Assembly: GCA_965198005.1 (NCBI GenBank)
Contig: CBDAOI010000003.1
Span: 1,120,001 to 1,184,000, forward strand
Direction of reading: 5' to 3'
DNA from: Spirochaetia bacterium
GTDB lineage: Bacteria; Spirochaetota; Spirochaetia; SZUA-6; Bin103
Length of the DNA: 64,000 nt
The position numbers were made by a program, and so were the translations under genes. Numbering within the stretch: the stretch's first letter is position 1; each line of letters begins with the position of its first letter. The notes below the pieces were generated by a model. That model was not told the origin of the DNA, did not search any database, and saw only the letters and a list, made by a program, of their open reading frames with translations. Below are positions 16,442 to 20,900 of this stretch, piece by piece.

Positions 16442-16590
16442 GTAGCTGCGTCTTCGCGGCACAGCCCGTAGACGTGGCAGTAGAGAGCGTCGAGGCGGGT
16501 GCGGAGGTGGCCGCGGCTCGGGGTTCCAGATGAACGGCGGGCCGTCGTAGCTGAAGTCCGCGCGAAGGGCGCCATGTCGCGGGCGGTGTA
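16442..16590 (-). pseudogene. Third (most decayed) copy of the RM enzyme C-terminal segment
   Basis: YTARDMAPFAR / YDGPPFIWNPE / HLRTRLDALYCHVYGLCREDAA with frameshifts. Confidence 0.85.
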
Positions 16591-16911
16591 TCGCCCTGAC
16601 TCTTGGCCAACCGGCCCCAGCGTGGCAGCAACTCCCGGCAGTACGGCAAGCGCACCGACACGTGCCCGGTGAGACGGTGAGACGCCGTGCGCTCCAGCGT
16701 GCGCCCCATTGCTGGGTTTATGCGTTTGTGTCGTGGGCGATCAGCGTATCGAGCGTTATCTGTGGATGGGGATGTAGACAGCGATGCCAAGGGACATCTC
16801 CATCGGCGACGTGCCGCCCTACCTCGCTTCGCGACGCCTGTCCGCCCACCGGACTCGTTCCGAAAATACGGAGCGGAGTGGACTTCTTCCGCTGCCTAAT
16901 ACGATGCTGAA

Positions 16912-17049
16912 TGGTAACTTATTCAGCCCGTTGAGAGAATCTTGAGGATAAGTTGTTCAAGGGGATAGACTTGCTTACGCAGGATGTTTGCCGGCCGCCC
17001 GATCCTTCCCCCTTGTCTCACTCCCCCCACCCCGGCTGAATAGTTACCA
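16912..17049. mobile_element. 138-bp MITE-like element with terminal inverted repeats
   Basis: Left tggtaacttattcagcc, right ggctgaatagttacca (reverse complement tggtaac-tattcagcc); GAA flanks both ends; non-coding. Confidence 0.6.
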
Positions 17050-17135
17050 GAACGGATGGATATACGTCAAGTATATCCTGCGGTCCTGCTGTTTGTTTTT
17101 CTGCTCACGGCCCATCTGAAAGCGGACAACGGCGA

Positions 17136-17620
17136 CTAGTGCCACAACCGTCTCCGTGTCGCCAGCGGCGAGGGCGTTCATGTAGCCGAGGCTGAGGTTG
17201 CGTGTGCGGTAGTGGCCGAACTCGGCTTCATCCTGACGGCGGATGATGGGAAGGTGTCTAGAACGTAGGCGGCGTCCTCGCGGGACAGCCCGTAAAGGTG
17301 GAAGTAAAGGGCGTCGAGACGGGCGCGGAGGTGGCGGCGCTGCTCGGCGTTCCAGATGAACGGCTGCCCGTCGTATCCGAGATCGCGGGCGAAGGATGCC
17401 ATGTCGTAGGCGCTGTAGGTGAGGCGCAGGACGTGATCGCGGATCAGATCCCGGGCGTTCCGGTCGCCGAAGCGCCGGTCGTAGTTCCCTGGTGAGATGA
17501 CGGGAAGCTGCTCGACGATGAAAAGATTGAGGGTCTGGCCGTGAACCTTCTGCCGGGCGATGAAGTCGAAAGCGAAAGTGTTTAGATTGGCGACCAACAG
17601 CGGTGCGGAAGTGTTGCCCG
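17136..17620 (-). pseudogene. Second copy of the RM enzyme distal TRD/C-terminal segment (complete tail, one frameshift)
   Basis: ANLNTFAFDFIARQKVHGQTLNLFIVEQLPV...[23 protein letters not shown] | IIRRQDEAEFGHYRTR...NALAAGDTE; shift at ~17250. Confidence 0.88.
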
Positions 17621-17930
17621 CCAGGTGAGATTTCCGGGATGTAGACGAACCCGCCAGGTGCCGTAGGATAGGTTCGCCCGGGCGCCCGGGAAGGGCTCTG
17701 GAGATCACGAAAAAGAGATAGGGGCCACCGCCAGTACTTACTCCGGGTACAACGGTGACCCCCACCTAAAAGCTGGATCATCCTAAACTAGACGGCTTCG
17801 ACTTTCAAGCCTACCGCCAATCCCTGATCAGAGAAGGCGGCAAGCGTCCCTGCGTGCTGTGCGGGGAGAGCCATGCGGTGGTGATTCATTGCTACTGCAA
17901 ACGCCTGGTGCGGTGCACCGACGGCAGTAA

Positions 17931-20900
17931 TCACCAACACCTGATCGTGGTGCGGCCACCGCCCGTGCTGGTGCGGATGAACTCGCCGCCGAGCCGCGTC
18001 CGGGCGTCGTGGCCGAGGGCGCGGGCGAACGGCGCCATATCGTGGGCTGTGTAGGTCAGGCGCAGGACGTGATGGCGGACCATCTCGCGGGCGGTCGTGT
18101 CGCCGAAACGCCGATCGTAGTCGTTGGGTGCGATTACGGGCAGTTGCTCGACTATGTACCAGTTCAGATTTGTGCCCTGAACTTTCTGTCTCGCCACGAA
18201 GTCTACCGGGATGGCGCTCAGATTCGCCCCGAGACAGGCGGCGGCGAGACCGTCACCTCCCACGAGAAGAGGGACCTTGTTGCCATAACCCGCCCACGGG
18301 ACGACCGCCGTTACGACCGTTCGTACGTCGGTCGGCCTGGCGATATCGCGGAAGCCCAAGGCCCATCCTCGCGCGCGAGGAATCCTTGACTCCACGTCCT
18401 TCGCTGGAACCCAGTACTGCGTCCGCGGAAGGAAGCCGGGATCTGCATGCTGGGCGTCGCTCACGGCTTCACTCACATACGGATTGTGCGTGTTCTGTGG
18501 GTTGATACGTACCGAGTTGGCGCGGTGATCGAAATGCGAAATCATCCGACCCTGGTATAGGGGCAGATACCACTCATCCGCTTTCTTATAGCGGTTGCCC
18601 TCGACCAGGTAGAAGCCCGCGGTTTCGAGCTCGGCAGCGGTGCGGAACAAGGCGGAGTCGTTGGTCATGTCGAACATTCGGTAGTAGCGCACCGGCCAGA
18701 CGCGCCGTTCCTCGGAGCCCGAGCGATCGACGAGCACCGGGTGTCGTTCGTAGATGCGACGCGTGATGTCGGCGTCGCGGCGGGTGCGGAACACGGGGGC
18801 GGTGCCGGTGTTGGGGTTCACCCGGGCGAAGTCGTCCGGCGTCAGCGGGAAGCAACGCTGCGGGTCGTCGACGGTGCCGGTGTCGTGCAGGAAGAAGGCG
18901 CACTTGGTCTGCGCGAAGCGGCGCTCGTCGCCGCCGAAGATGAGCGCGCAGAACTTGAACCGCGAATCGACGTCCGGGAAGAATGGTGGCAGCTCGGTGC
19001 CAAGACGGCGGTTCTCGAAGTCGAACAGGCCGCCGATTCTGCCGGTGGTGGAGAGGCTCTTGAAGAAGCGGGCGGCGGTCTTGTCGGCGTAGATGCCGGA
19101 TGGCGTGAGCAGGCCTACCAGTCCGTCGGGCGTCACCAAGCTCATGGCGCGTTCGACGAACAGCGAGTAGAGGTTGATGTCGCCGCCGCCGAGCAGCGGG
19201 TAGCTGCCGGACATGCGCACCATGCGGCCGAGTTGGTCGGCACGCCCCTTGGCGGCGTCGAAGTCCGCCGCCAGCGGCTCACTCCGGTCCCGCAGTCGCC
19301 GGATCGCGGCGCGCCGGGCGGCCGCGGTCGGGGCAAGGGCGATCTCCCGAGCACGGGTCGCGAACCACTCCACCTCCTGCAGCTTGATCCGGTCCCAGGG
19401 CGGATTGCCGATCACGGCGTCGAAGCCGCCTTCGGGCCGGCGGTTCTGCCAGTGCCGCCATACGCCGGGAAAGGCCGCCTGCCAATGCAGGAATGCCTCC
19501 CGCCGCGCAATGGCTCTGGCTTCCTGCCAGCGCTCGCGCAGCGTTGCCCAGTGTTCCTGGTCGACGTCGTCGGCGCCGTCACCCCCGGAATCCGGCCCAC
19601 GCGCCAGAATCCGGTACGCATCGGTGGGTTTTCGGCTGAGCGTTGCCGCCAGCGGCGTCTCGAATTGGGAGCGCGCCGTGGTTTTCATGCCGGCGCTCAT
19701 CCACTGCAGTCCGCAGAGAAAATCGAGCAACCCACGCAGGTCGGCCGTGGTCTCCTCTACACCGCGAAACGCCGACGCCGACTCGTGCACCTCCACCACG
19801 TCGGCATCCGACATCTCCTCGATCCGCGCCATCCCCTCCGCGGCGACCTCCGCGCCGGCCATCGCCGAACCGGCAAACAACCCGCCGAGCCGATCCAGCT
19901 CGCGAATCGCGTCCCGCACCCGGATCCCGATCAGCGAGTCGCCGCACCGCAGGTGATGGTCGAGGAACGACAGCGGCGCACCTGCGGTGAAGCTGTGCAA
20001 CCACAGCGAGACCTTCGCCAGTTCCACGGTCAGGCGGTTCTTGTCCACCCCGTAGATGCAGCGCTTGAGCACCATGCGCCGGATGATGGCCTGGTCCGTG
20101 AGCTGGGCGACGTCGATGATCCAGTTGCCTGCCTGCGCCCGGTGCAGAATCCCCCGCCGAATCTCGGCGATCCGGCCTACCAGGGGCGATTCATAGGCGC
20201 CGTCGGACCACTCCGGCACGCCCGGCACGTATTCGATCAACTCGGCGATGTAGTCGGACAGGAAGTCGACAGCGCTTACCAGAAAGTGGCCGCTGCCCAT
20301 GGCCGGATCGAGCACCTTGAGCCGCAGCACCGCTTCCGCCGGATCCAGCCGTGCCAGCGTCGCCATCCGAACGGCCTTGGGGCGGCGATCGGTCGCAAGC
20401 TCGTGCGCCCTGGCCTCGAACGCACGCAACCGCTCCTCCGCCAGCGGTTTGAGTGTCTGGTCCACGATCAGGTCGACCAGTTCCTGCGGCGTGTAGAAAC
20501 TGCCGCTGTCCTTGCGGGCGTAGGAGTCGAGCCGGATCTCCACGCCGCCGTCTGCCGTGCGCGTGGGTTCGCGTTCGAGGAGGCGTTCGTAGATGGAACC
20601 GAGTTGCTGCACCGACATGTCGCGGTAGTTGACGAAACGGCGGGCACCATTGTCCTGCTGGCCCGCCGCCGTGTGGCTGAGGTCGTAAATGACGTCCGCC
20701 ACCACCGTGTCCGGGACCCGGACTTGCTGCAGGATCGGCGCGGCCTCGGGCGCGAACAGGCCGCCGTTGTAGGGCGGCAGGCCGATCGACTCATCGCCCT
20801 GGTCGATCTGTCGGAACAGCTCGGTCAGGCGGTTGTAGTAGTGACCGGCGGTGGAGGAAAAGGTGTCGCCCTCGGCCATGCGGCGCGCAACATCCTCGCG

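Follow-up and report, generated by a model that had tools for sequence, protein, structure and literature searches.

A window of 64,000 nt from a Spirochaetia bacterium (G000:C3:1120001-1184000; "the window" always means this whole stretch) carries on its minus strand the gene of a large restriction-modification (RM) enzyme, behind whose 3′ end lie two further, incomplete copies of its terminal segment (Table 1). The main open reading frame (ORF) matched the Pfam families Eco57I (4.5e-19; 69.6 bits, cut-off 25.3) and N6_Mtase (8.5e-8), and GNPPW, an NPPY/W motif of the kind that marks N6-adenine methyltransferases, is invariant across the query alignment A1; the matches to nuclease domains fell just below threshold (HSDR_N, 22.2 bits for a cut-off of 25.1; MmeI_hel, 23 bits for a cut-off of 27). 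By its build the main gene is thus predicted to encode a single-chain, Type IIG-like RM enzyme. In NCBIfam the family gave just PglX/Alw26I-type matches, far below cut-off, and a sequence search of the PDB with P0003, the first sequence of A1, returned 0 matches.

Full-length relatives of the enzyme are 1340-1350 aa long and end in a strongly conserved tail, of which about 85 aa lie beyond the sequence ...ALGHDA. In the main ORF the homology to the family runs from 21815 down to 18005 and stops after ...ALGHDA, and the final 24 codons (18004-17931) are encoded by transposon debris. Because the conserved last ~85 residues of the family are missing, the main gene is probably impaired or dead. 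At its other end, near 21610 (main residue 68, N-terminal region), the main gene reads LELLGWTYLPQQ where P0001 and six relatives have an extra D (GWxDYLPQQ), which amounts to a one-codon deletion relative to them.

The repeated segment occurs three times in the same orientation, in the main gene at 18005-18245 and downstream of it as the pieces that we call copy 2 and copy 3. A repeat search aligned 18005-18227 of the main gene with 17369-17591 of copy 2 (223 nt, 73%) at a spacing of 636 bp, and blastn against the whole 4.9-Mb genome returned the same pair at 74.9% over 199 nt (E 3e-31) and the pair of copy 2 and copy 3 (17269-17417 and 16445-16590) at 81.9% over 149 nt (E 2e-33); the main gene and copy 3 overlap by just ~32 nt (84%). 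The longest exact match is 16 nt between the main gene and copy 2, 16 nt between copy 2 and copy 3, and 11 nt between the main gene and copy 3. Like the main gene, both orphan copies are damaged: in copy 2 the reading frame shifts by 1 nt near 17247-17248 and the stop that should follow ...VVAL (17137) is missing, and copy 3, which is 79-83% identical in nucleotides to the tails of the relatives L011-L017, is readable only with two frameshifts. An earlier note, made from the letters of this DNA, had described three same-orientation copies, a distance of 636 bp between aligned positions of the main gene and copy 2, and a copy 2 holding the tail that the main gene lacks; all of this was recovered, with pairwise identities of 73-84%, although the tail in copy 2 is frameshifted and has no stop. 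The same note had placed a difference between the main gene and copy 2 in a loop proximal to the target recognition domain (TRD). Both peptides that it quoted, RQKVQGTNLNWY and RQKVHGQTLNLF, are present, but the label is loose, since RQKVQGTNLNWY belongs to the conserved flank that immediately follows the protein's variable block. The repeated segment is in fact the conserved tail of the family, which follows that block; copy 2 keeps the last few dozen residues of the block and copy 3 none.

The DNA between the main gene and copy 2 was compared with the rest of the genome by blastn of the region 16200-18400, and it consists of pieces of two multicopy elements, which we refer to as insertion sequences (IS) IS-A and IS-B. 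The 40 bp of IS-B adjoin the exact point at which the homology of the main gene is lost, and in the other copies of this repeat they form the end of an ORF just before the repeat edge. The other seven IS-A copies share at least 2.14 kb and the left edge and run past the equivalent of position 17952, the window's element being cut internally; read by eye, they continue into what appears to be an rve/DDE-like ORF. Copy 2 begins at 17609, exactly at the outer (left) edge of IS-A. The homology of the main gene ends where the debris of multicopy elements starts, and it is therefore these mobile-element remains that truncate the main gene. The same order of 40 bp, 12 bp and IS-A is crossed by two protein records in public databases (99% and 98% identical), with one small indel as the difference, so that the arrangement is not specific to this assembly.

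We then compared the copies with the genes of other genomes. Over their ~240 nt of common gene coordinates, the main gene and copy 2 are 64% identical in amino acids (80 residues), whereas copy 2 is 80-82% identical to the genes L011-L013 from the same genus or family and, from the IS edge onward, matches the gene ends of six relatives (L011-L014, L016, L017) at 81-84% of nucleotides over 450-475 nt; the main gene is 82% identical in amino acids to P0003, L042 and L086. Copy 2 thus resembles genes in other genomes more than it resembles the main gene and so is no duplicate of main-gene sequence; judged by these identities, the two are different alleles. The translated C-terminal blocks of the genus or family relatives fall into three classes, alpha (the main gene and P0003), beta (L010, L014, L015) and gamma (L011, L012, L013, L016, L017 and copy 2). 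The gamma-class motif (...APLLVANLNTFAFDFIARQKVHGQTLNLF) is found in copy 2 and in the genes of five relatives, and the main gene carries the alpha-class motif of P0003. The variable block occupies alignment columns ~1100-1250, where identity falls to 36-48% on a backbone of 92-100%; it resembles a TRD and would be the part of the enzyme that reads DNA. Five further relatives' genes have 70-93% backbone identity to the main gene and ~40% in the same block.

A clean case of exchange was met in the congener G001, whose gene is 92-100% identical to P0003 in columns 51-1050, 78% in 1051-1100, 36-44% in 1101-1250 and 76-88% thereafter. A 39-codon remnant 271 bp past its stop ends with ...GDTKTVVAL and a stop codon, like the tails of P0003 and P0010, whereas the attached tail ends with ...GDIEIVVEP and a stop codon, unlike the remnant downstream of it. 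The 5′ body of the G001 gene belongs to the P0003/P0010 lineage, the same as the remnant. The remnant matches the lineage of the gene's 5′ part and not that of its present tail, and therefore points to replacement, with the old end displaced, rather than to duplication. The G001 gene and the displaced remnant behind it form a rare example of a TRD swap with a datable scar. A trailing remnant was present in two of the nine genus or family relatives with an orthologue, G001 and G011, the latter with a 20-residue remnant 2.7 kb downstream.

Between copy 2 and copy 3 lies the start of a neighbouring gene. Along the minus strand the truncated alpha gene is followed by the element debris, the gamma tail, ~290 bp, the first part of an HMG-CoA synthase-like gene, 26 bp and copy 3. 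The congener G001 has this HMG-CoA synthase-like gene 5 kb downstream of its RM gene (Pfam HMG_CoA_synt_N/C on the G001 protein). The order in the window is the one expected of a donor segment, made of a gene end and its downstream flank, joined into an older resident tail, and the leader and start of the synthase gene between the two copies have the appearance expected of a donor flank that entered together with a new gene end. Elsewhere in G000 the synthase-like gene has intact homologues and additional fragments; the fragments at C4:331795-332355 (residues 103-245 and 395-422; 61-73% identical) suggest that the ancestral locus was split by rearrangement.

Table 1. Features of the RM locus in the window, and genes lying between RM genes and tail remnants in relatives (L042 to L091).
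Feature	Position	Strand	Description
Main ORF	17931..21815	-	1294 aa; predicted single-chain RM enzyme of Eco57I/MmeI-like build (Type IIG-like)
IS-B fragment	17965..18004	+	40 bp, part of a repeat with 26 further occurrences in the genome (blastn query 16200-18400)
Filler	17953..17964	.	12 bp between the IS-A and IS-B fragments, delimited by comparison with IS-A and IS-B copies
IS-A fragment	17611..17952	+	342 bp from the left end of a multicopy element with 7 further copies (93.6-94.4%)
Copy 2	17137..17609	-	Orphan 3′ end, ~157 codons, of a gamma-class allele of the same gene; from ~residue 1185 of ~1343
HMG-CoA synthase-like gene fragment	16617..16849	-	5′ end and 47 nt of leader; blastn 69.6% over 247 nt to L039 16031-16267
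Copy 3	16445..16590	-	146 nt from inside the conserved tail, corresponding to ~residues 1253-1302 in a full-length relative; both ends cut
L091 series			MNT and HEPN, tail, DUF4258 pair, tail, MazE-like gene, tail
L055 cargo between gene and remnant			MNT nucleotidyltransferase
L063 cargo between gene and remnant			MNT nucleotidyltransferase
L042 cargo			Vsr and C5 methylase (Vsr-Dcm) with a HATPase_c_3 protein
L088 cargo			ThiF-containing set
L059 cargo			189-aa ORF without assigned family
L064 cargo			Coiled-coil ORF

The recurrence of such remnants was examined in a set of 73 homologous loci (L040-L112) with 62-77% aa identity to P0003, two of which are the G018 and G012 records. Their metagenome-assembled genomes (MAGs) carry the labels Latescibacterota, Dehalococcoidia, Chloroflexota, Caldilineaceae, Gammaproteobacteria, Rhodothermales, Nitrospirales, Acidobacteriota/Terriglobia, Spirochaetia, Gemmatimonadota, Binatia and Entotheonella, among others. 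By tblastn with P0003 a second, non-colinear tail piece was found in seven of the 73 loci, and in none of them a second full-length or 5′-containing tandem gene downstream. When each gene's own last 450 nt were used in blastn, 14 of 68 loci yielded 17 extra fragments, each lying downstream of the gene and in its orientation; among the 68 loci there was no upstream or inverted tail fragment, and one weak match was intragenic (L043). A segment control by the same method in 65 loci returned the tail in 13 loci (16 fragments), the first 450 nt in two (3 fragments, upstream and on the same strand) and three internal 450-nt segments in 0, 1 (26 nt, minus strand) and 1 locus, respectively. The fragments of the first 450 nt, at L059 8355-8394 and L073 2156-2279, look like a rarer mirror image of the tail pattern. 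Hence similar scars do stand behind homologues, in many phyla, a search for such arrays in related genomes having been proposed as a check in the earlier note; an even sample of the phylum, 401 genomes including G000 searched with the tail, held the RM family in only 9 and was uninformative on arrays.

The remnants are at times serial, three in L091 and two in L059. Their start points vary between query residues 1189 and 1306, and their ends are more uniform: in one set of eight, seven reach query residue 1339 or beyond, that of G011 stopping at 1336, and 7 of the 17 found by blastn reach the last two bases of the gene. The DNA between gene and remnant often holds toxin-antitoxin or defence genes, which the remnants bracket (Table 1). 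In L091 (13031-16719; MAG label Candidatus Versatilivorator) an intact homologue is followed by tails at 14119-14322, 15404-15503 and 16627-16719, so that each of three toxin-antitoxin-type modules is succeeded by an orphan RM tail, and the DUF4258 and MazE-like genes each have a partner ORF. L090, with the same genus label, has the MNT-HEPN pair and no remnant, and is not an empty site for L091. In L052 (12312-13978; Gammaproteobacteria MAG) the homologue is split by a 1.66-kb insert at ~residue 1108, near where the variable block begins. Integration at a specific site in the tail was considered but set aside: the starts of the remnants vary, and in spacers of 646-1081 bp the genes are all of the toxin-antitoxin kind, with no integrase among them.

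We consider it rather probable (roughly 0.62) that the 3′ end of a horizontally mobile, Type IIG-like RM gene was replaced or rearranged here at least twice in succession, and that the locus preserves these events in fossil form. This reading starts from the observed anatomy, the allele classes, the debris junction, the congener's mosaic and remnant, and the tail-specific, same-strand, downstream recurrence. A resident allele would have stood just upstream of the HMG-CoA synthase gene. DNA of a related donor, carrying the end of a gamma-class gene and, as its flank, intergenic DNA with the beginning of the synthase gene, would then have recombined in, on the left by homology in the conserved gene body and on the right by illegitimate joining inside the resident tail, leaving copy 3. 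Later an alpha-class allele, the present main gene, would have replaced all of the gamma allele upstream of ~17609, leaving copy 2, and the join of this step would now consist of the fragments of two mobile elements. The outcome would be a gene that is probably impaired or dead, with copies 2 and 3 as non-coding debris. What we infer is the succession of these steps and the way of joining, homologous on one side and illegitimate on the other. The earlier note had proposed, as one of two possibilities, that the array records repeated replacement or integration at the 3′ end, and this proposal is supported by the different allele classes, the G001 mosaic and the recurrence of tails in 14 of 68 loci, compared with 0-2 of 65 loci that have fragments of other segments.

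Several points weigh against this reconstruction. Both ends of the junction between the main gene and copy 2 are element debris, and an element-mediated deletion or inversion could build the join without an incoming allele. No donor and no empty site of the alpha allele were found, and a 33-mer taken from before the junction, as a probe for the pre-insertion form, had 0 matches in one scan of JGI metagenome contigs. Copy 3 stops short of the gene end, unlike the seven of eight remnants that reach at least residue 1339. In L091, L042 and L088 the gene's own tail and its remnant are 92-97% identical, which fits a long target duplication equally well. The order of events is not datable, and the read evidence consists of Logan contigs, which are blind to rare variants.

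The alternative that fares best, although we regard it as unlikely, is insertion with long target duplication, a process reportedly described by Nobusato and colleagues in 2000: foreign DNA entering near the 3′ end would have duplicated a stretch of the target, and the copies would have diverged, the downstream one as a pseudogene. The topology of gene with tail, insert and second tail agrees with this, as do the direct repeats, which measure 81-514 nt in relatives and 146-240 nt in the window. In L091, L059 and L088 the repeat extends past the stop (by 102, 77 and 8 nt), and because it does so the first copy stays intact; identity between own tail and remnant in relatives is 82-97%, with 97% in L091 and 95% in L042. 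In relatives, direct repeats of more than 30 bp flank MNT, MNT-HEPN, Vsr-Dcm and other cargo without a mobility gene, and the insert in the window is element debris. For RM and other genes such insertions, with repeats of 46-423 bp, are described in parts of Furuta et al. (2010, PMC2853133). The arrays share with that process the long direct target repeats around inserts without transposase or integrase, with toxin-antitoxin genes between the tail copies in L055, L063 and L091; they differ from it in that the target is the RM gene's own 3′ end, that the repeats may be 75-87% identical and belong to a different allele class, and that up to three remnants follow one gene (L091). Against a duplication in the window stands the 64% aa identity of its copies, which are of different allele classes and do not derive from a single target, with copy 2 less similar to the main gene than to its counterparts elsewhere; in G001 the remnant belongs to the lineage of the gene's 5′ part and not to that of its present tail. 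Moreover, no empty-site genome was found, and the MNT-HEPN pair of L090 stands without a remnant. For the window and G001 the allele evidence thus favours displacement over long target duplication, while in the other relatives the two fit alike and are not separable.

A second alternative, decay of a tandem array, would start from two or three complete head-to-tail RM paralogues, the downstream ones having lost their 5′ parts by transposon-mediated deletion. The genome is dense in repeats (seven full IS-A copies, 26 IS-B matches and ~20 group II intron-like copies), the junction between the main gene and copy 2 is element debris, and a second paralogue of the RM gene, of 1595 aa, is encoded elsewhere on the same contig. 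We nevertheless hold this origin to be quite improbable, given that 0 of 73 loci had a second full-length or 5′-containing copy downstream, that the fragments come specifically from the tail (13 of 65 loci; the other segments gave 0-2 of 65) and that a simple array does not predict the neighbour-gene fragment between copies 2 and 3.

The earlier note had itself raised the doubt that the copies are an assembly artefact, that is, a chimera of strain variants collapsed into one contig. Logan contigs from the runs of two studies cover 16262-17337 with 0 differences (X5), and 17977-18681 (X5) and 17977-18792 (X6) with 0 other letters and 2 gaps, so that error-free contigs span copy 3 to the 3′ part of copy 2 and the junction of IS-B with the main gene. 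The two independent protein records (98-99%) moreover read gene, 40 bp, 12 bp and IS-A in the same order. In favour of an artefact, the junction of copy 2 with IS-A is bridged by just 6 nt in the listed contigs and 17953-17976 is covered by none of them; the summed depth in the tail bin 17082-17195 is 922-1565, against ~16-45 (X5, X6) and 5-13 (X10) in unique flanks. Because the depth of the tail is far above that of unique DNA, many homologues must be present in the community. Altogether the array is probably not an artefact, a reading to which we give very little weight; the contigs confirm parts of the arrangement. A further run, X2, a small-share sponge-metagenome run, held only relatives of 85-95%.

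The same contigs bear on recombinants between the main gene and copy 2, which the earlier note had proposed to look for in reads as 636-bp deletions. Joints were seen at 17443>18086 (a skip of 642 with 6 inserted letters, net 636) and at 16551/16559>17400, with sides of 29-31 nt. They are best read as intact homologues of other community members aligned across both copies; the 636-bp joints, with sides of 29 nt only, thus give no evidence of recombinants. Functional silent 3′ cassettes, in which homologous recombination of the main gene with copy 2 or 3 would switch specificity or repair the enzyme, and which the earlier note had offered as a reservoir for recombinase-independent switching, are hardly credible: the copies do lie downstream in direct orientation, and members of the family do combine a shared backbone with reassorted variable C-terminal blocks, but the copies hold the conserved tail and no complete alternative variable block, copy 2 is frameshifted without a stop and would pass its frameshift on to a recombinant with the main gene, copy 3 has 146 nt with two frameshifts, the junction is debris, the longest exact match between copies, 16 nt, falls below the roughly 20-30 nt of identity that efficient RecA-type exchange needs, the inverted repeats in 15500-19000 are all short and imperfect, and the ORFs scanned by Pfam near the locus (part of the window's ORFs) include no recombinase except an IS3-type rve fragment at 11742-12146.

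The array can be set beside known systems with orphan or alternative gene ends. Arrays of orphan toxin tips in Rhs and CdiA loci, formed by displacement, were reportedly described by Poole and colleagues in 2011 and by Koskiniemi and colleagues in 2014. The RM loci resemble them in the same-orientation 3′ fragments downstream (two in the window, 17 in 14 of 68 loci of relatives), in the small cargo genes of its own that follow each fragment in relatives, and in new ends that seemingly arrive by recombination anchored in the conserved body. Orphans of Rhs and CDI systems keep the variable tip together with the conserved core upstream of it and can hence be recombined back. The RM remnants, in contrast, consist mainly of conserved sequence beyond the variable block and carry frameshifts, and because of this they cannot serve as cassettes. 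Shufflons of Type I hsdS genes rely on inverted repeats, a dedicated recombinase and intact alternative TRDs; the locus is like them in having extra partial, specificity-related copies beside an RM gene, and unlike them in that none of these three was found here, as regards a recombinase in the ORFs scanned. Allelic diversity of Type IIG recognition domains is described in parts of Furuta et al. (2010, PMC2853133), and, as far as those parts go, a conserved backbone with a discrete, diverged C-terminal block agrees with it, here with three classes in one genus or family. What differs from the TRD diversity set out there is that the swaps seen here leave orphan pieces of the old 3′ end downstream, in an RM family known from sequence alone. 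In the portions of the literature that our search covered, no description of orphan 3′-tail arrays behind a Type IIG gene was met.

The RM gene stands in a defence and mobile-element island that extends from 11.5 to 24.5 kb of the window. Directly upstream of it, at 22011-24528 on the minus strand, genes for DUF6527 (22267-22686), a ThiF/E1-like protein (22614-23612), an unassigned 258-aa ORF (23528-24304) and Prok-E2_E (23995-24528) form a set that resembles a defence operon for ubiquitin-like conjugation; a ThiF-containing set likewise separates the tail copies of L088. Further along the minus strand lie a HicB (PF05534) and HicA (PF07927) toxin-antitoxin pair (12751-13760) and the IS3-type transposase fragment (rve_3; 11742-12146). 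Just beyond copy 3, on the opposite strand, a 192-aa ORF (15716-16294, plus strand) matches DUF2807, a putative adhesin head, and no link to the array was found for it. Elsewhere G000 contains ~20 copies of a ~1.9-kb element (e.g. C3:153088-155907), which on reading by eye appears to encode a group II intron-type reverse transcriptase, ~25 copies of a 475-666-bp repeat, and the seven copies of the 2.1-kb IS-A.

The 4-kb RM gene, at 62-77% aa identity to P0003, is present in MAGs of about a dozen phyla or classes, in the runs that contain the window the summed contig depth of its conserved parts (17082-17423 and 18678-18905) exceeds the depth of unique DNA from this organism 20- to 100-fold or more, and three small-share runs are labelled sponge metagenome. 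This suggests that the gene has spread horizontally and widely within one kind of community. A broader idea, which we advance tentatively, is that the conserved 3′ tail acts as a recombinase-free landing pad, where new ends with toxin-antitoxin or defence cargo arrive, anchored in the gene body, and push the old tail and its cargo downstream; Rhs-like arrays would in this way grow defence islands across many phyla of one habitat, with the window as a decayed example.

Locally, what we see is decay in a repeat-laden genome: the array of the window is dead debris that says little on function, a variant on known RM rearrangements, and its value lies in pointing to the scars behind 14 of 68 sampled homologues. 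The broader, tail-specific orphan pattern is worth following, the scars providing a sequence-level handle both on the natural change of the specificity block in single-chain RM genes and on the accretion of defence islands beside RM genes without a dedicated recombinase.

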